Source: a phage
Direction: 5' to 3' (one strand)
Assembly (NCBI GenBank): GCA_022520065.1
Contig: GCA_022520065.1_3942.1
DNA: 64,000 bases
Shown here: positions 8,664 through 54,176 of the stretch, piece by piece
Position numbering within the stretch: the first letter of the stretch is position 1
Layout of the letters: each line of letters starts with the position of its first letter
Notes under the pieces: model-generated
The model's input: the letters and a program-made list of their open reading frames with translations, nothing else
What the model was told of the DNA's origin: nothing
The model's database searches: none
Program-made: the position numbers and the translations under genes

Positions 8664-9023
8664 TTATGGGAACAAACACTTAATGTCGTCGTTTTTGAAA
8701 ACGAAGCTTGTGTAGTTGTGACCGTCAACATCCAGCCAAACAGCCTGAACATCTACACCATCAAGATTGTGGTAAAGTTCTTTGATGAAGTGGTCTTTCA
8801 CAATCTGGCTGCTAGTTGTCTCCAGCTTAATGTTTGAGATTGCTGAACCTACAGCCATATAACCCATGACACGTTTCTTCTCAGTGTGCTTAATCTTACC
8901 ATCTTTGTAAGCCATAATGAGATTGGAAAGAATCTTCACACCATAATACTTTTCAAGGTGAGTAGGTACACCATAAAAGCCTAATGCAAAGTTTTCAGAG
9001 TGGATAATGTTTTCACGTTTCAT
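8664..9023 (-). CDS. hypothetical protein
   Basis: 119-aa ORF in operon. Confidence 0.5.
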   Translation of the reverse strand: MKRENIIHSENFALGFYGVPTHLEKYYGVKILSNLIMAYKDGKIKHTEKKRVMGYMAVGSAISNIKLETTSSQIVKDHFIKELYHNLDGVDVQAVWLDVDGHNYTSFVFKNDDIKCLFP

Positions 9024-9024
9024 A

Positions 9025-9354
9025 TTAATCTGCCAACCTTAAATTAAAATTTACACCAAATTTTTCGCATACTTCCAACATATACTCAAGCGAGACATTA
9101 CCAGTAAGGTGGATTATGTTGGACACACGAGCCTGAGAGATACCACAAATTTTAGCAACTTGCTCTTGAGAAAGACCTCTGGATTTAATCTCTCTCTTAA
9201 AACGATGTGCAACGAAGTCTCTCATTTCGTCTACATCCATTGGACAAATATAACTCTCCATTTCAGCCTCTCTGTCAGCCTCCCAATCATCTTGTGGAGC
9301 ATAAGGGTCAAAAACCTCATTCATCTTTCTTCTTCCGTTTGCGTGAAGTGTCAA
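9025..9354 (-). CDS. HTH (XRE-like) DNA-binding protein
   Basis: C-terminal helix-turn-helix-like LSQEQVAKICGISQARVSNIIH. Confidence 0.55.
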   Translation of the reverse strand: MTLHANGRRKMNEVFDPYAPQDDWEADREAEMESYICPMDVDEMRDFVAHRFKREIKSRGLSQEQVAKICGISQARVSNIIHLTGNVSLEYMLEVCEKFGVNFNLRLAD

Positions 9355-9529
9355 TCAATGAATCTATGTTTGTAGCCCTAACCTTTTCACGTTCATCGTT
9401 AAGATAATCATCAAGAGCCTTTTCAATCTGTGAATCATCTTGACAGATAACTGTAAAGACTGTAAAGCCGTCTGTATCGTCAATTATCTTACCATAACCG
9501 CCTCTGGGATGTAACTTTTTAAGAGCCAT
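9317..9529 (-). CDS. hypothetical protein
   Basis: 70-aa ORF overlapping downstream gene start. Confidence 0.35.
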   Translation of the reverse strand: MALKKLHPRGGYGKIIDDTDGFTVFTVICQDDSQIEKALDDYLNDEREKVRATNIDSLIDTSRKRKKKDE

Positions 9530-9530
9530 A

Positions 9531-9914
9531 TCAAATACCTGTGCAGCTTCTGTTTTCTAAGAAATATTCAACACCGTACATAGCTTTTTGCATCAAATCT
9601 TCTTTAAACTGGATACGGTGGTTGAGCATCGCCTGTACATCAATATCGTCATGGTGTTTCTCTTTAATGTTTGCAGATTGCAGGAAATACTCTGCAAGAA
9701 CACGATACTGGTAGTCAGTCACCTTATCAGTCATCTCTGTCAAAGACTCTTCAGAGATGGGTTTAAGTAACTCACCATTAGCTAGAGCAACACCTTTTAC
9801 AATCTGGCAAGTGTCTACTGGAACACCTGATAAATCCACATTTGGAAGTTCTGTTGCATTAACTGGTAAATTCATTGCCATAACCATTGCAGCAGCTAAT
9901 AAAACCTTTTTCAT
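9531..9914 (-). CDS. secreted protein (signal peptide)
   Basis: N-terminal MKKVLLAAAMVMAMNLPVNA signal-like sequence. Confidence 0.5.
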   Translation of the reverse strand: MKKVLLAAAMVMAMNLPVNATELPNVDLSGVPVDTCQIVKGVALANGELLKPISEESLTEMTDKVTDYQYRVLAEYFLQSANIKEKHHDDIDVQAMLNHRIQFKEDLMQKAMYGVEYFLENRSCTGI

Positions 9915-10030
9915 AATGACCTCAAAGTTATATTAAATTTTGTATTACATTGAGTATAAAAATAAGCTATAACACCTGACTTGTCAACAGATTTTATAGC
10001 TTATTTGGCAGATTTTTTATAAGGCTACTG

Positions 10031-10104
10031 CCATCCTTCCATACCCTACCTTACCACACCCAACCATACCTAACCAAACTACACCATACAATACCTTATT
10101 AAAA
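10031..10104. repeat. G-free, C/A-rich tract of degenerate (N)ACC repeats
   Basis: 74 nt without a single G on + strand; second similar block 10161-10200. Confidence 0.6.
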
Positions 10105-10483
10105 GACCCTCTTAAAGACCTTTTAAAAAGGTAAGTCTCATTTTAATGTAGCTGAGACTAACTACCCATACATTACCGCACCATATTATACCCTACCCCA
10201 CCATACTTCACTGCACCGAGCCACGCATTACATCACTTAAAAACCCTTTTCAAAGACTCTTAAGTGATGCTGGTGAGTACCCGTTGGTTTATGATGCTCA
10301 GTATACTCACCAAATTTTCTATGTCAACAACTTTTATAAAAAAGTTCTGATAGCTATATGCGTCACGAAACAAAAGATTGTAAACAAGACACCCATTGCA
10401 AAAGATGTGTCCAAAAGCTTACTTGCAACGTATGACAATACAAAGACAACCAGTATAAATAGAATGACTGTACTGAACATAGT

Positions 10484-11587
10484 TTACTCATAATCCCTAA
10501 TAACTAGCCCTACAGGAAACTGTAAAGAACCTTTACGAGTCATCTTCTGGAACTGAACAGTTAAAGGTTTCCCGATAAACTCTTCAGGATGTTCAGCAAG
10601 ATACTGTTTCTTCTCGTGTGTAGTTTTCCATGAAACATCTACAAAGACGTTAGGAAGAGTCTCTACAACGAACTTACCATGACCACGCTTATCGGTCTTT
10701 ACACCAGTCACTTTAAACTCTTCAGTGTGCATCTTCTTGTGCTTAATCAAGAAGTATGAACGGTGACAACACTCATAGAAGGAGTCTTCAGAGATTGAAC
10801 GGTACATTGCACCTTCAAACTTAGCTTCAACCCACTTATCATGAGCTTCATCAAACTCTTCCCAAGAATTTACACGACGAGATTTAACAGGAACAACTTT
10901 ACAGCCGTCTCTAAAGTCATTCAATGGTGAAGTCTCAATAATATCTCTACGCTCAGGCCACGTTTTAGTACTGTCACAGATATCATACCAGTAGAACTTA
11001 AGTGAGTGTCTGTCAGGATTGTCTTCATTTTTAATCATAGAGACAATATCTTCTAAGTCCCACCCATGAGCATAAATCTCACCATCAAATTCATCAACAT
11101 CTTTATGGAGCCTCAACATTGCCATAATGTCAGGTATTAGCTCAGTAGGAATTTTATAAATAGTGTTCTCACGAGAATATGCTGTAAATACACTGCCAAT
11201 ACTCAAGTGTCTTGAAATTCTACAACGGACACCATCAAGTTTTGGTTGAGCATCAGCAGGGAACTTCAGATACTTTGCATGGCTAACCTTTGCAGCATCA
11301 TGAGCAAGCTGTACACCTACCTTCTCAGTGTTCTGTGCAGACTCTTTTGTGTAAGCATAACCTTTGCGGTCTACTTGCTTTTTATACTTAGCAGCAACTT
11401 CAAAGAGAGCTTGCTGTTCAGCATTACGCTCATTCTTTTTACCGATGTTCTTAGGCTCTGCTGTGTACTCTTCAAACATCATCTTGCCATTTTCTTTACC
11501 GTAGGTTGTAATAACTTTGTCACCTACAGCAACGCATGACCAGACGTTGAAGGAACCGTCTTTATTTTGTTTGTACAGAATTGTCAT
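10484..11587 (-). CDS. ATP-dependent DNA ligase
   Basis: KLDGVRC (motif I), EFDGEIY, FEGAMYR, LIKHKK; start moved to ATG 11585-11587 with GAGG RBS (track start 11623 overlaps upstream gene). Confidence 0.75.
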   Translation of the reverse strand: MTILYKQNKDGSFNVWSCVAVGDKVITTYGKENGKMMFEEYTAEPKNIGKKNERNAEQQALFEVAAKYKKQVDRKGYAYTKESAQNTEKVGVQLAHDAAKVSHAKYLKFPADAQPKLDGVRCRISRHLSIGSVFTAYSRENTIYKIPTELIPDIMAMLRLHKDVDEFDGEIYAHGWDLEDIVSMIKNEDNPDRHSLKFYWYDICDSTKTWPERRDIIETSPLNDFRDGCKVVPVKSRRVNSWEEFDEAHDKWVEAKFEGAMYRSISEDSFYECCHRSYFLIKHKKMHTEEFKVTGVKTDKRGHGKFVVETLPNVFVDVSWKTTHEKKQYLAEHPEEFIGKPLTVQFQKMTRKGSLQFPVGLVIRDYE

Positions 11588-11792
11588 TTTTAACCTCTGA
11601 GTGATACCAAGTGTCACAAGCATTACATGCGTAAAGCTCTAAGTCGTTTTTATCTGGTTTATGGAAACAGTTTGACCCACAACGACACCGGAATAACTTA
11701 CCATCAACACGAAGAATGAATGTTTCAAGCTCACCCTCTTCTGTAAGGACGGCGTTATTATATTTGTTATCTTTATCCATTTGTACTCTCAC
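11562..11792 (-). CDS. small zinc-ribbon protein
   Basis: CRCG ... CNAC cysteine pairs. Confidence 0.4.
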   Translation of the reverse strand: MRVQMDKDNKYNNAVLTEEGELETFILRVDGKLFRCRCGSNCFHKPDKNDLELYACNACDTWYHSEVKNDNSVQTK

Positions 11793-17160: not shown

Positions 17161-17904
17161 ATGAGTAATATTATCGCATTTACTGGAAAGGCACGTTCTG
17201 GAAAAGACACCTCATGTTCTATTGTTAAGAATATCCTAGAAGATGAGTATGGCTACAATGTTGCAGTAATGGCCTATGCAGACAACCTTAAACTCTCTGC
17301 ATCAAGGATATTTGACTTGACTTGGAATGACCTGTACGGTGAAACTAAAGAGACTCCACAGGTTTTTGATTTATCATACTCTGAACTGATGTTCAAGGTC
17401 ACAGAAGCTATGGAGTTTACCTTCAGAGGCGAACGTTATCATACGGACTTCAAACTCATGTCAGAGTTAACCGGACGATTAATTATGGAACTAAAGAAGG
17501 TTGCTAAACCGACTCTATTAACACGTCTGGGATTTAGTAAAAAGTATAAATTTTCATCAAGACAGATTCAACAGATTTGGGGTACTGAAGTTATCCGTAA
17601 AGTTATGGGTGACAAATTCTGGGCTAAAGACCTCGAAAAACGAATGGTAAATTTCTTTGACGTTTGCTCACTTAAGAATCAGGACGGTGTTGTTTTAATC
17701 AGTGACTTAAGGTTTGACTCTGAAGCTGAGTGGCTGAGCAGATTTGCACACCAAACTATTGAAGTAAAAAGAGACAATGTGGATAAGGTTTCGTCACATG
17801 TTTCAGAAAATGGGATTTCTACCAAATATGCGCGTGACATTATTCATAATAATGGTACTCTTGCAGACCTTGAAAGCAAGTTAAGAGCTATCCTGAAAAT
17901 TTAA
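17161..17904 (+). CDS. deoxynucleoside monophosphate kinase (T4 gp1-like)
   Basis: FTGKARSGKDT P-loop and C-terminal NNGTLADLESKLRAILK resembling T4 dNMP kinase. Confidence 0.75.
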   Translation: MSNIIAFTGKARSGKDTSCSIVKNILEDEYGYNVAVMAYADNLKLSASRIFDLTWNDLYGETKETPQVFDLSYSELMFKVTEAMEFTFRGERYHTDFKLMSELTGRLIMELKKVAKPTLLTRLGFSKKYKFSSRQIQQIWGTEVIRKVMGDKFWAKDLEKRMVNFFDVCSLKNQDGVVLISDLRFDSEAEWLSRFAHQTIEVKRDNVDKVSSHVSENGISTKYARDIIHNNGTLADLESKLRAILKI

Positions 17905-17912
17905 AAGAGAGA

Positions 17913-18113
17913 ATGAAGATGAGAGTAAAAGATAATTTTAAAGTTATTGACCATCGTTTAGTGGAACTCTCATCTCTTTCCAATGAGGTAATGATTGAAC
18001 GTCTTAAGAGAGTTGAATCACGAAGGAAAGAGATTGCAGATGAGATTCATGAACTGGACAAGATTGAAAATGGATTGAAGGCAGAACTACAACGAAGAGG
18101 TGCTAATGTCTAA
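17913..18113 (+). CDS. hypothetical coiled-coil protein
   Basis: 66-aa ORF. Confidence 0.4.
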   Translation: MKMRVKDNFKVIDHRLVELSSLSNEVMIERLKRVESRRKEIADEIHELDKIENGLKAELQRRGANV

Positions 18114-23756: not shown

Positions 23757-24504
23757 CTCAAGAGAAGCAGTAAAAAACTGGAATCTTCGTTGTGGAAACA
23801 CTCAAAAGCAACCTTACAGTGATGAGTATTGGGAATCTTTAAAATCCCAGTCTCTGTGTATGCTGGAAGAAGCAAAAGAGCTTGTAAAAGCAATTGAAGA
23901 GAAAGACCCCATTGAGACACTGGATGCTCAGGCAGATTTGCAATATGTTCTTGACGGTTTGATTTACCTGTCACAACATGACCATAACGGTGCTATGAAA
24001 GCTGTTTGCCGTAATAATGACCTGAAGTACACAGATGACTATGAAGAAGCTTTAAAACGTCTTGCAGATATTGAGAAGCGTACTGGTCAAGAGTGTATTA
24101 TCAGAATGTCAGTAGTTGATGGTAAAGAGTGGTATGCCATTGTTCGTGCAGCAGATGGGAAGATTATGAAGCAATCGAATCTCCCTAAAGTACAGCTTGG
24201 TGAATACATTGTAGAACTTGAAAGCCAAGAACTTTTTGTGGTAGTATCTGAGACATGCGTTATCTGCAAAGGTATTGTAGATAGTTTAAAGGATTTGGGT
24301 GTAGATGGTTTTGTAGAAGTTAATCCAATTACCTCTAAAGCAGATAAAGACTTCTGTAAAGAGAATGGACTATGGATTGCAGACATTATCTACTATGATG
24401 GTGAGCAGTTCCATGTAACCTCATACCCGAAACTGAATTATGATGCTAATAACCTGAAGTGCTGGTTAAAAGGGGTTGGTTATAATGGATTCACAGAACA
24501 TTAA
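23749..24504 (+). CDS. protein with MazG-like nucleotide pyrophosphohydrolase-type N-terminal region
   Basis: EExxELVKAIEEKD ... DLQYVLDGLIYLSQ resembles MazG EExxE/D pattern; weak. Confidence 0.35.
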   Translation: MFNSREAVKNWNLRCGNTQKQPYSDEYWESLKSQSLCMLEEAKELVKAIEEKDPIETLDAQADLQYVLDGLIYLSQHDHNGAMKAVCRNNDLKYTDDYEEALKRLADIEKRTGQECIIRMSVVDGKEWYAIVRAADGKIMKQSNLPKVQLGEYIVELESQELFVVVSETCVICKGIVDSLKDLGVDGFVEVNPITSKADKDFCKENGLWIADIIYYDGEQFHVTSYPKLNYDANNLKCWLKGVGYNGFTEH

Positions 24505-50769: not shown

Positions 50770-51300
50770 ATGAACAAATTTCAAGCTATCAACTTCATTC
50801 GTTCAAATGCTGTAATGTCTAAGCCTGTAAAAGATACATACGAATTCCGTTGTAATGGGGTACATTTCGCAACAATCACCAAATCAGAAAACGGGGCTTA
50901 TTACGTTCATCGTCGTAATGTTTCAACCGTTGTAGTCTCTCACTTTATGCAAGCTGTAGCGGAATTATTACCGTTATTCTTAGAGATTTACTTAGATGAG
51001 TGTAAAAACGTTCACAACCACGTTAAAAGCCTTTTAAACGGTTATAAAATGGCTTATGAACGCTCTATCAAGTCCTTAAACAAGTTTTACAATGCACCTG
51101 CAAATACTGTTTCAATGGCTTATGATGTAAACGGTGAGTTAGTTAGTCTCTTTGAAGTGGAAGAAATTAAGCTGTATAATTTACGTCCTAGTGGTTACTC
51201 TAAGACTCTTGGTGAAGGTTTATCCTTTAATATCAAGAACTTAGAAAAAACTTTAAAAGACATTGAAAAAGATATTGACGAGACAATCAAAAGTCTGTAA
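50770..51300 (+). CDS. hypothetical protein (array gene 12)
   Basis: ORF behind type-A cassette. Confidence 0.5.
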   Translation: MNKFQAINFIRSNAVMSKPVKDTYEFRCNGVHFATITKSENGAYYVHRRNVSTVVVSHFMQAVAELLPLFLEIYLDECKNVHNHVKSLLNGYKMAYERSIKSLNKFYNAPANTVSMAYDVNGELVSLFEVEEIKLYNLRPSGYSKTLGEGLSFNIKNLEKTLKDIEKDIDETIKSL

Positions 51301-51303
51301 ATT
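51275..51303 (+). promoter_or_regulatory. type-A cassette promoter TTGACG-N17-TAAATT
   Basis: Lies within 3' end of gene 12; followed by hairpin 51314-51334. Confidence 0.45.
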
Positions 51304-51366
51304 GTCAATCAACGGGGAGGGAATGACCTTCCCCACTAAATAAAGTCCTAAACTGGAGTTATCAAG

Positions 51367-51630
51367 ATGGAAAACGTAGAATTAACCACACTTTTACAAA
51401 TTGCAACCGACAAAGAGAACGTAGCTTTATTTCACCGCATCGAAAGTGATTTGTTCAATGGTGAAATCATCAAAGAGTCTTACGAGGTTGTTGGATTCAA
51501 AGATGGTAAAACATTTGGATTCTTTGACCTCGAAAAAGGCAACGCTGTTACAAAATATGATGTTTTATCTTGTGAGATTCTTACAAGATACAACGAAAAA
51601 AGGCTTGCAACATACGCCAATATGCAGTAA
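51367..51630 (+). CDS. hypothetical small protein (array gene 13)
   Basis: ORF behind type-A cassette. Confidence 0.5.
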   Translation: MENVELTTLLQIATDKENVALFHRIESDLFNGEIIKESYEVVGFKDGKTFGFFDLEKGNAVTKYDVLSCEILTRYNEKRLATYANMQ

Positions 51631-51633
51631 ATT
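51605..51633 (+). promoter_or_regulatory. type-A cassette promoter TTGCAA-N17-TAAATT
   Basis: Followed by hairpin 51644-51661. Confidence 0.4.
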
Positions 51634-51696
51634 ACTAATCAACGGGAGGCGATAACCTCCCCACTAAATAAAACCCTTAAACTAGGAGATTCAAAA

Positions 51697-51945
51697 ATGG
51701 CAACTATCCGCGCTACTGTTAACGAGTTCGGTTTTTCCTCTCTGGATGTTAAATTTGACATTGCAGGCACTGATAACGCCTTTGAAATGGTGAAAGGTCT
51801 TATCAGTCAGACCATCAAAGATTATAATCCTTCGGATGAGTTCTGGGAGGAAACAAAACAAGAAGTTCTCAAGGATGGTTATACTTATCACTATTGGGGA
51901 GAAAAAATCGTCTCCCTGTACTACAACAAACAAGATTATAACTAA
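51697..51945 (+). CDS. hypothetical small protein (array gene 14)
   Basis: ORF behind type-A cassette. Confidence 0.5.
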   Translation: MATIRATVNEFGFSSLDVKFDIAGTDNAFEMVKGLISQTIKDYNPSDEFWEETKQEVLKDGYTYHYWGEKIVSLYYNKQDYN

Positions 51946-51983
51946 TCGACGCAGCGGGGCTAAATAGCCCCAGATACCCTAAC

Positions 51984-52008
51984 AGCCCCTTTAAATAGGG
52001 GCTTTTTT
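51984..52008 (+). terminator. strong intrinsic terminator closing the array
   Basis: AGCCCCT-ttaaat-AGGGGCT followed by TTTTTT; preceded by type-B-like hairpin 51956-51971. Confidence 0.65.
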
Positions 52009-52010
52009 AC

Positions 52011-53590
52011 GTCTATCCAATCCTTATACAATCCCTTTCCCTCACCTTTCCAGAATCTATCCACTGATTCGATAGAACCTATCTCATACCTTAAAAAGCA
52101 ATAACTCTATAGTCTACTCTGTAACCTCTTATCAAATCAACTTAAATAAAAGCCAATAACCCCAGAAAGGGGATGGCCCATTTAAACGCTCTATAAAGCT
52201 CTATAACAGCCTTATCAAACTGACTTAAGGGATTGCATTAACTCACCCTAAAAAGCCCTTTATAAAGCTTCCTAGAGCCTTAAAAGAATCTTATAAGGGT
52301 GTAAGCTTTATCATCTCGTTAGTATTCTTGTGAACTATTAAAAAGGGCTTGGTAGTGTCTTAAAAGTATGTTATAGGGGCTATAAAGTTACTTCAAAGTT
52401 ACGTAAAAGAGGCTATAAAGTTACGTAAATGCTAGCCCCCTTAACATTTTCTTAACAATTTCTTAACAATCCCTACATAGTTATGCTTTTAAGGCACTTG
52501 TTAGCAACTTGTTAGCCCCTTGTTAAATCTCTGTTAAGACCACGTAAAAGCCTTGTAAGAGTCTTTGACATAGCCTTAAAAGCTTCTGTAAAGCTCTATA
52601 AAGAGGTGTCTGTACAGTTGGGGGATAGATACTAGGAAGAGACTTAAAAGAGCTTATAAAGAGCTATAGAGAGCTTTTAAAAGGTATGTTTAAGGAATCA
52701 CTAAGAGGGGAAAGGGAACGATAAGAAAGAGATAGTGACCATGTTAATAGCTTGTTAAAAAGATTAAACACTTGTTAGAAACTTGTTAATTATCTTAACA
52801 AAATAACTCTTAAAAATCAACTTGTTAGCTCTTGTTAGTCATCTGTTAAGGCTCTGTAAAGCCTATGTATCAACTGTTAAGAAACTGTTACACCATTGTT
52901 AGTTCTGTTAAGAAACTGTTAAGACCTTTGAAGAGTTGTTAAGAGCTTGAGAGAGTTGTTAAGAAATTGTTAAGGATATTTTAAAATTTTGCAAAGTACT
53001 TGTAAGGGAGCTGTTAAGGGCTACCAAGCAGATATACATCTTCTACAGATATTTTTGAGTTCCTTCAAAGACCCTAAAAAATGACTTGACAGTCCTATTT
53101 TATAAAAATTTTAAGATTCTGAATAATTACCTATACAGTCTTTTAAAAATACAGGTAGAAACAGGCTTATAAGATACCTTGTTAGTACCGTGTTAGACCT
53201 TGTGAGATAAGGTCTGTAAAGATATTCCTGTTAAGTTTGTTAAAACAGTCTATATAGAGGCTTAGTAGTACCTAGTGAACACCTATAGAGAGTGTCATAG
53301 CTAACCTAGAGATTAAGAGGTGTATAGGAGCTTCTAAGAGGGTATAGAGAGATGGTTAAGATGATTGTATAGGTTGTTTAGAAGGCTTGTTAGAAGAGTG
53401 TTTAGATGGCTATTTAGAAGGGCTATACAGAGGGCTATTAAGACCACTAGATAGTTACTAAGATACTATATAGTACTATATAACTATATATAGAGAGTAA
53501 GATTAAGAAGGTTGTTAAGAAGGGTAGATATTTTGTTCACATATAATGGTGACCCAGAGGTTGGGACAACCGATAAAATTTTATAAAAAT
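52011..53590. repeat. ORF-free island saturated with short degenerate direct repeats (YTGTTARR and related words)
   Basis: No ORF of 60 aa or more on either strand; dense block 52740-52990; tandem 11-mer 52449-52470; TATATA block 53461-53500. Confidence 0.7.
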
Positions 53591-53591
53591 T

Positions 53592-53615
53592 AAAAAGCCC
53601 CCAATTAAGGAGGCT
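53592..53615 (-). terminator. intrinsic terminator for leftward operon
   Basis: On - strand AGCCTCC-ttaatt-GGGGGCT followed by TTTTT; same hairpin design as 17118. Confidence 0.55.
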
Positions 53616-53627
53616 CTTAAGATATTT

Positions 53628-54176
53628 TTAAATCAGTGTTTCCAGAACTGTTTTTAGTGATGACTTGGTTGTCTGATAAAAATGAGTAAAGCCGTTGTTG
53701 TTATCAAATACCTGCATCATGATATCATCTCCCTTGATTGGGTACACTCGGATATCATAGTGAAAACCATTAAAGACACAAGAGCCATTACAGAATGCAC
53801 TAAAGTCATCCACTGAGATATACTCTTCATGTCCTGTGATTTTTATACAGATACCTTTACTCGGTCTCTTAGGATTAATATCTTCCATCACAGACATATT
53901 CTGTCCACCAAGAGATACCATAGTGACCACTTTACGGTTCTTCTGTCTAAAGTACATCTTAACTTTCTGTAAAGTGTCTTCATAGAACGGATAAGACTTC
54001 TCTACAAAGATTCCTTCAAGTGGCTCTTTACCATTTTCAACTTCTCTGTTATGCCGTACTGCAAAGATAATTTGTTCGAACCAGTCAAGATTTTCTTCGG
54101 AGAGTGCTTCCCGAACATCACTCCAATCAAGGACTAGGTAGTTACCTTCAACTTCTTTTAAGTTATCTTTTTCCAT
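53628..54176 (-). CDS. hypothetical protein
   Basis: Track start 54221 is TTG; first ATG at 54176. Confidence 0.45.
   Translation of the reverse strand: MEKDNLKEVEGNYLVLDWSDVREALSEENLDWFEQIIFAVRHNREVENGKEPLEGIFVEKSYPFYEDTLQKVKMYFRQKNRKVVTMVSLGGQNMSVMEDINPKRPSKGICIKITGHEEYISVDDFSAFCNGSCVFNGFHYDIRVYPIKGDDIMMQVFDNNNGFTHFYQTTKSSLKTVLETLI

Follow-up and report, generated by a model that had tools for sequence, protein, structure and literature searches.

The stretch of phage DNA analysed in this study (64 kb; hereafter the window) belongs to a Felixounavirus (Felix O1-like phage) and covers about 64 of the roughly 85 kb of the phage genome. The repeat tract under study lies within a leftward transcription unit, with the DNA ligase gene on one side and the gene for a signal-peptide protein on the other (for the coordinates of all features see the table below). 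Upon search with 1.6 kb around the tract, a total of 258 phage records were found to match the locus at least in part, some of them through the ligase gene alone, and mostly with 90-96% identity. The hydrophobic 48-aa ORF next to the ligase gene is conserved in wV8 and finno, where the changes are synonymous or conservative; FO1a and SUSP1 lack it. The open reading frame 10284-10493 of the ORF list, which had been taken as doubtful in a previous reading from the letters of this DNA (hereafter the sequence-only reading), turned out to be the antisense shadow of this conserved minus-strand ORF. Because the 48-aa ORF occupies the remainder, the true non-coding gap is 419 bp (9915-10333) and not 570 bp as had been described.

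The lack of G from positions 10031-10104 of the plus strand, as claimed before, was confirmed: this 74-nt run is the longest G-free run of the window, and it exceeds, though narrowly, the runs in all 200 mononucleotide shuffles (mean 49, maximum 72). The base content of the 240-bp region is A82, C80, G18 and T60. On the same strand ACC is repeated 7 times at exact 5-nt spacing (10043-10075), while the shuffles reach at most 4, and, with all trinucleotides and all periods of 4-11 considered, this 7-fold chain is the longest of the window. The key property of the tract is thus the strict 5-nt period, (NNACC)n on the plus strand and (GGYNN)n in the sense of the leftward genes, and the depletion of G is secondary to it. 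Some tracts of related phages carry G at the N positions, and therefore the G depletion is incidental. The second block, placed at 10161-10200 in the sequence-only reading, is real but extends in fact over 10166-10230 and includes some G; likewise the inverted repeat at 9963-10000 is present and encloses a minus-strand TTGACA as described, but its arms are of 19 nt (89% complementary) instead of 9 bp.

Table. Features between the DNA ligase gene and the signal-peptide protein gene, in the order of leftward transcription (promoters, guides and tails are predicted; the names vrR and vrL anticipate the interpretation given in the text)
Feature	Position	Strand	Remarks
DNA ligase gene	10484-11623	minus	
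Membrane-peptide ORF	10334-10480	minus	48 aa, hydrophobic; directly after ligase gene
P1, sigma70-like promoter	10300..10327	minus	TTGACA 10327-10322, 16-nt spacer, TATACT 10305-10300
5′ leader hairpin	10231..10269	minus	CATCACTTAAG...CTTAAGTGATG; before first guide; perfect 10-nt inverted repeat
vrR guide tract	10166..10230	minus	13 YNNGG-phase units, 8 canonical: TAATG CGTGG CTCGG TGCAG TGAAG TATGG TGGGG TAGGG TATAA TATGG TGCGG TAATG TATGG
vrR 3′ tail, type T1	10130..10165	minus	Hairpin UAGUCUCA / UGAGAC(U)UA; possible GUAG:CUAC pseudoknot pairing
Inter-guide spacer	10096..10129	minus	UUUUUAAAAGGUCUUUAAGAGGGUCUUUUAAUAA; before second guide; palindrome together with flanking bases
vrL guide tract	10031..10095	minus	11 units, 9 canonical, plus invariant GGAAGGAUGG end: GGUAU UGUAU GGUGU AGUUU GGUUA GGUAU GGUUG GGUGU GGUAA GGUAG GGUAU GGAAG GAUGG
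vrL 3′ tail, type T2	9991..10030	minus	CAGUAGCCUUAUAAAAAAUCUGCC...; stem GGCAG/CUGCC
19-nt-arm hairpin, then U-rich run	9959..10006	minus	Arms 9960-9978 and 9988-10006
Promoter P2 for downstream gene 9914-9531	TTGACA 9987-9982, TATTTT 9964-9959	minus	-35 in hairpin loop
Signal-peptide protein gene	9531-9914	minus	

In 17 Felixounavirus contigs of IMG/VR and in several GenBank genomes, conserved flanks were found around pentamer tracts of about 10-15 units. The homologous region in relatives was checked for loss of the repeats, and the repeats are kept: across at least 20 relatives the RCC positions (GGY on the other strand) are retained, while the NN dinucleotides are hypervariable and cannot be aligned between phages that are otherwise more than 90% identical. 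After scanning of IMG/VR for (ACCNN)5ACC, more than 120 loci were identified, many of them on contigs of unrelated phages. These unrelated contigs carry up to 12 tandem tracts, each with 10-20 hypervariable pentamers behind a fixed header, and in most of about 30 such loci the repeat reads as GGYNN in the sense of the neighbouring genes. In about 25 unrelated contigs the arrays are on the sense strand and mostly start at most about 50 nt from the stop codon of the gene for a protein of about 190 aa (180-210 aa). The array-adjacent proteins are mutually homologous, end with G-[IVL]-G-D-[WY]-R-P...G-x-F, and include gp95 of wV8; the family of wV8 gp95 is phrog_4652 (function unknown), for which Pfam and PADLOC hold no model. 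In PDB, wV8 gp95 matched the entry 36pp 'SUSP1 Vipr protein' with E = 6e-128 and about 98% identity. Four of the unrelated IMG/VR contigs, in which a Vipr homologue is followed by a multi-guide array, carry 12 (L056, 2217-3406), 7 (L044, 4600-5047), 9 (L042, 3331-5318) and 6 guides (L065, 2098-2614), each with a fixed header of its own. The period of the L044 array is 68 bp, and this array is flanked by the terminase and portal modules.

VIPR (Viral Interference Programmable Repeat), described in 2026 in two preprints, represents a new logic of RNA-guided DNA recognition and has been proposed as an ancestor of CRISPR effectors. Vipr is a minimal, ancestral RAMP protein (about 20 kDa, about 195 aa, with the G-loop GVGDWRP), which polymerises on vrRNAs consisting of 9-16 YNNGG repeats and, after these, a structured 3′ tail that does not vary; pairing to double-stranded DNA is by the NN dinucleotides, every third target base being skipped, and the bound target is transcriptionally silenced (10.64898/2026.04.26.720920; 10.64898/2026.04.26.720927, for all of the above). 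For the SUSP1 clade, most natural targets were found in a satellite parasitising the phage (10.64898/2026.04.26.720920; 10.64898/2026.04.26.720927), and in the SUSP1 system each GGY is clamped by one Vipr protomer (10.64898/2026.04.26.720927). A further mark of the type II systems of this clade is that the guides are RNAs of about 100 nt co-purifying with Vipr.

As judged from sequence, the tracts of the window are homologous, element by element, to vrRNA genes that have been characterised by experiment. We consider it very probable that the tract represents two vrRNA genes, herein designated vrR and vrL, on the minus strand of a type II VIPR locus of the SUSP1 clade, most likely as the remnant of a recent deletion. 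The SUSP1 locus is arranged in the order of ligase, vrRNA1, vipr, vap1, three vrRNAs and gp037 homologue, and the window locus is in the same position as this type II VIPR locus, from the DNA ligase gene to the gp037/gp93 homologue, as are those of wV8 and tootiki. SUSP1 and the window share the promoter (TTGACA/16 nt/TATACT), the leader hairpin, the GGY/NN guide arrays, the tail GGGUAGUUAGUCUCAGCUACAUUAAAAUGAGAC, the spacer AAAAGGUCUUU...GGGUCUUUUAAUAA, the terminal tail GGAUGGCAGUAGCCUUAUAAAAAAUCUGCC, and the hairpin that carries the next promoter (P2). The difference is in the content: the window holds two guides but neither vipr, the effector gene, nor its accessory gene vap, whereas SUSP1 carries four guides (one upstream and three downstream) and wV8 also four (two plus two). 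In wV8, tootiki and many others, a guide unit stands on both sides of a two-gene cassette (genes 95 and 94 in wV8). With respect to the sequence-only reading, its choice of the leftward transcript as the relevant strand and of the GG doublets as protein-binding elements agrees well with the homologous SUSP1 system of one Vipr protomer per GGY; the 5-nt period, the hypervariable NN and the identity as guide RNAs were, however, missed, and that reading as a whole is therefore only partly supported.

The individual elements were compared with those of relatives. P1 agrees with the consensus at 11 of 12 positions and differs very little from the sequence that precedes SUSP1 vrRNA1, an RNA expressed during infection (10.64898/2026.04.26.720920); from its position, the vrRNA transcript is predicted to start near 10293. 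The leader hairpin is also found before SUSP1 vrRNA1 and vrRNA4, and is kept across the 17 IMG/VR relatives. The vrR sequence, common to 8 loci, is identical to the first guide of wV8, located upstream of vipr. Its T1 tail matches the SUSP1 vrRNA2 and vrRNA3 tails over GUAGUUAGUCUCAGCUACAUUAAAAUGAGACU (about 32/36 nt), with the last few bases being different. The T1 hairpin of 6 pairs is 100% paired in 9 distinct tails, with 3 of the 6 pairs changed on both sides (covariation); the helix of the putative pseudoknot is invariant among the tails and gives neither support nor contradiction. The inter-guide spacer is kept in all relatives, and also in SUSP1 before vrRNA2 and vrRNA3. The vrL tract corresponds to the G-free run of the plus strand; its alleles in two relatives (L007 and L019) differ at NN positions, and that of L007 carries one extra unit. 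The T2 tail is identical to the SUSP1 vrRNA4 tail, and the T2 variant adjoining vipr has the stem GGUAG/CUACC, a compensatory change. The 19-nt-arm hairpin, which is kept in SUSP1, is formed when the 346-nt transcript is folded at minimum free energy (z = -5.7) and is a possible end of the vrRNA transcript, with a putative role as terminator. Relevant Rfam matches were absent at E up to 1 in the region 9000-11500, nothing reached the Rfam gathering score in 14 array-bearing loci, and the tRNA scan found none.

Based on this organization, transcription from P1 would produce, in this order, the leader hairpin, vrR with its T1 tail and vrL with its T2 tail, and would end at the hairpin 9960-10006. 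The two guides are probably still transcribed. In a complete system, Vipr protomers would assemble on the GGYs, and the filament would present the NN dinucleotides to double-stranded DNA. The two guides of the window would be inert unless Vipr is supplied in trans, for instance by a co-infecting vipr+ relative.

For identification of the targets, we scanned for NNxNNx patterns under the published one-base-skip rule. With the first nine vrR units, six hits were obtained, and five of them belong to one gene family, a tape-measure gene that is chromosomal in 164 of 5,426 complete E. coli genomes. Along this satellite tape-measure gene, vrR matches at 21/24 positions (87.5%), with the first nine units perfect, in frame, and with the skipped base at the wobble position; over ten units the match is 19/20 (0.95), while shuffled guides reach at most 0.85. 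A satellite match of the same one-base-skip type, with the skipped base at the wobble position, is shared by SUSP1. The island concerned (about 11.5 kb) is located at L212 12300-24100, between yciI and tonB of E. coli CT02, and is also present in L213, L214 and L216. It carries two serine recombinase genes, one small and one large, as well as genes for a Dam-like methyltransferase and an HTH protein and for the tape-measure and baseplate proteins (29% and 66-70% identical, respectively, to Felixounavirus/SUSP1 proteins), and occupies several chromosomal sites; its left part was found in 572 of 5,426 complete E. coli genomes. The identities of the tape-measure and baseplate proteins fit the satellite described in the VIPR preprint. 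The island was first found by an exact-pattern scan with one to three chance hits expected, and its credibility as a target rests on the independent hits of other guides: 9/50 distinct guides of the clade match it at 80% or more, against 0/50 in either of two equally large control regions flanking it, and all six coding-sense guide hits to the island are in wobble phase. The island occurs in variants, and not every satellite carries the vrR site. On these sequence grounds vrR retains a bona fide target match, and a reporter with GTATCCGCTGAAATGGGAAGGATGATTGATAAAGC would be expected to be silenced by Vipr together with vrR. The analysis has also reproduced, independently, the one-base-skip rule as published and the wobble-position phasing.

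For vrL, no convincing target was found: the best match (18/22) is not in wobble phase, falls in AT-rich sequence, and is equalled by shuffles. The exact pattern of 9 vrL units gave 48 hits, all being AT-rich chance matches with one unrelated repeat family dominant. The exact pattern of 11 vrR units gave 0 hits in IMG/VR, and 10 vrR units gave 4 hits in the JGI metagenomes, none of which extends; two of the four, with an offset of one codon, are in the gene for a coiled-coil protein that is apparently bacterial. No self-target was detected in the window or in the fetched loci (maximum 18/24). The whole vrRNA unit had no match in the 5,426 E. coli genomes, and therefore the satellites carry no SUSP1-type guides; in the satellite loci examined, neither a vipr homologue nor a guide array was found.

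By tblastn with wV8 Vipr and at least 20 diverse homologues, no match for vipr was obtained in the window, nor with the same queries in OZ035761.1, the closest relative (complete genome, 84,499 bp), in which the pentamer tract is present only at this locus. The search for vap with wV8 gp94 also gave no match in the window or in OZ035761.1. As the window covers about 64 of roughly 85 kb, the presence of vipr elsewhere in this phage is excluded only by analogy with the closest relative. Vipr is encoded in about 118 Felixounavirus-type records (at least 90% identity), compared with the 258 records that match the locus at least partly, and roughly half of the Felix O1-like phages are without Vipr.

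The route of loss could be seen by comparison of OZ035800.1 with OZ035761.1, both deposited as 'Felixounavirus LF82P5'. OZ035761.1 has a deletion of 1,397 bp, bounded by two copies of an 82-bp repeat, which is composed of the T1 tail and the inter-guide spacer; over the 5-6 kb compared, the only other differences are two substitutions and one 1-bp indel, and almost all of the difference in genome length (1,399 bp) is accounted for by this deletion. The deletion takes the second guide, vipr, vap and the third guide, and the first and last guides remain, which is the layout of the window. A deletion mechanism that yields the architecture of the window does exist. Homologous recombination between the two conserved-tail repeat copies would remove the cassette and leave the first and last guide. 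A further step of loss and decay looks to be represented by the Felix O1-type phages FO1a (L196 820-935) and finno (L197 820-935), in which a single fused guide, with the first guide's leader hairpin and the last guide's tail, retains only about 6/13 canonical GGY.

The integrity of GGY in the effector-less phages is about 0.76-0.86, no lower than in vipr+ relatives, and this level fits recent loss and continued selection equally well. In a rival explanation, effector-less guides would be maintained for action in trans, being loaded onto the Vipr of co-infecting vipr+ relatives, which make up about half of the Felixounaviruses. Besides the high GGY integrity and the intact promoter, this idea is favoured by the satellite matches of guides from two effector-less phages (vrR of the window, and the last guide of L018 with 19/22), by the number of Vipr-encoding records (about 118, against 258 matching the locus, some via the ligase gene alone), and by the tails, which are identical to those of vipr+ phages so that the RNAs should suit their Vipr. 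However, frequent recent deletion fits the same data, the vrR allele of the window is identical to that of wV8, leaving no time for decay, and the single fused guide of the Felix O1-type looks decayed. We regard maintenance for trans use as unlikely on the whole. If it were true, the guides could provide cost-free silencing of the shared satellite, or titrate or redirect the Vipr of a rival, as a guide-only cheater or RNA anti-VIPR. Within the interpretation as vrRNA genes, the guides are likely to be nothing more than recent remnants.

The composition of the tract, with 74 nt free of G, rich in C, and with GG every 5 nt on the other strand, is by itself what one might expect of a Rho-utilisation site for antisense transcripts, or of two-quartet G4 or R-loops in the G-rich leftward RNA or DNA, for example in replication priming. 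The Rho site and the two-quartet G4 had been suggested in the sequence-only reading, and gained no support. In relatives G is allowed at NN of the plus strand, and what is conserved is the 5-nt phase and the RCC triplet, not the G depletion; neither a Rho site nor a G4 needs a strict period with hypervariable dinucleotides and conserved structured tails, and the promoter scan showed no site directed rightward within about 400 bp. All the features are accounted for by the association with vipr in unrelated phages, and the identity as vrRNA makes these proposals, which we consider highly improbable, unnecessary. Short periodic repeats are known in viral origins and pac sites. That the tract is such a DNA-level site (packaging or terminal sequence, nick site or origin iterons) is hardly credible despite its location among replication genes, and the earlier suggestion of nicks or of replication or packaging ends gained no support. 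The locus is not a genome terminus. Against a DNA-level site are the internal position of the locus in UAB_Phi87 (57-59 kb of 87.6 kb), of which the 608-bp terminal repeats were mapped elsewhere (PMC4837284), its partial dispensability (relatives with one, two, or four or more tracts), and its orientation, which follows the gene sense in most of about 30 unrelated loci and argues for RNA.

Protein coding by the tract was rejected: no reading frame is compatible with a 5-nt period, in-phase stop codons abound on the minus strand, and the window and wV8 are not in the same frame with respect to the conserved flanks. A site for a TRAP-like ring protein, together with Rho, G4/R-loop origin and pac/terminus, was dropped once the conserved upstream protein proved to be Vipr. 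No information on the locus was found in the Bas63 essentiality preprint or in the ISME J paper.

The vrRNA genes of the window can be compared with other known systems. Like orphan CRISPR arrays, the guide repeats have outlasted the effector genes and are usable in principle by an effector in trans; unlike them in chemistry and code, the guides consist of pentamer repeats that pair with gaps and lack separate spacers. They are carried by a virulent phage, and the route of loss, by recombination between guide tails, was seen directly. TRAP sites in Bacillus trp leaders are (G/U)AG triplets with 2-3-nt spacers, bound by a closed ring that regulates attenuation. They share with vrRNA a conserved triplet with a two-base spacer, 11-13 repeats and one protein subunit per repeat, but TRAP, unlike Vipr, forms a closed ring, its spacers are not used to read DNA, and there is no homology. 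In T4-type phages, PeSL promoter/stem-loop cassettes are reportedly shuffled via recombination between repeated regulatory elements (Arbiol et al. 2010). There, as here, a small gene cassette lies between repeated structured elements close to promoters, and is gained or lost through homologous recombination at these elements, except that the repeats of the window are functional guide-RNA tails and not just regulatory.

The kind of element itself is known from the two VIPR preprints, with the close relative SUSP1 as its model system, but neither text mentions the effector-less state, how frequent it is, the mechanism of deletion or the decay series. The preprints located VIPR loci through the Vipr protein, and surveys by the protein will miss guide loci without effector. 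The window shows a VIPR locus after loss of the protein, with recombination between guide tails as a simple route to switch it off; the states seen are four guides with the proteins, two orphan guides, and one decayed guide. The near-isogenic pair OZ035800 and OZ035761 offers a ready test of the worth of VIPR on satellite-bearing hosts.

Elsewhere in the window, a gene-free stretch of about 2.3 kb (51300-53628) lies between convergently arranged gene blocks and is full of 10-12-bp tandem repeats, for instance at 52384-52429, 52637-52681, 52872-52974 and 53377-53443, with C-free runs at 53335-53385 and 53485-53537; it could be an origin or a regulatory region, or lie near the terminal repeats. 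The longest C-free runs of the plus strand in the window, two of 57 nt each (17894-17950 and 24268-24324), are situated inside or adjoining plus-strand genes.
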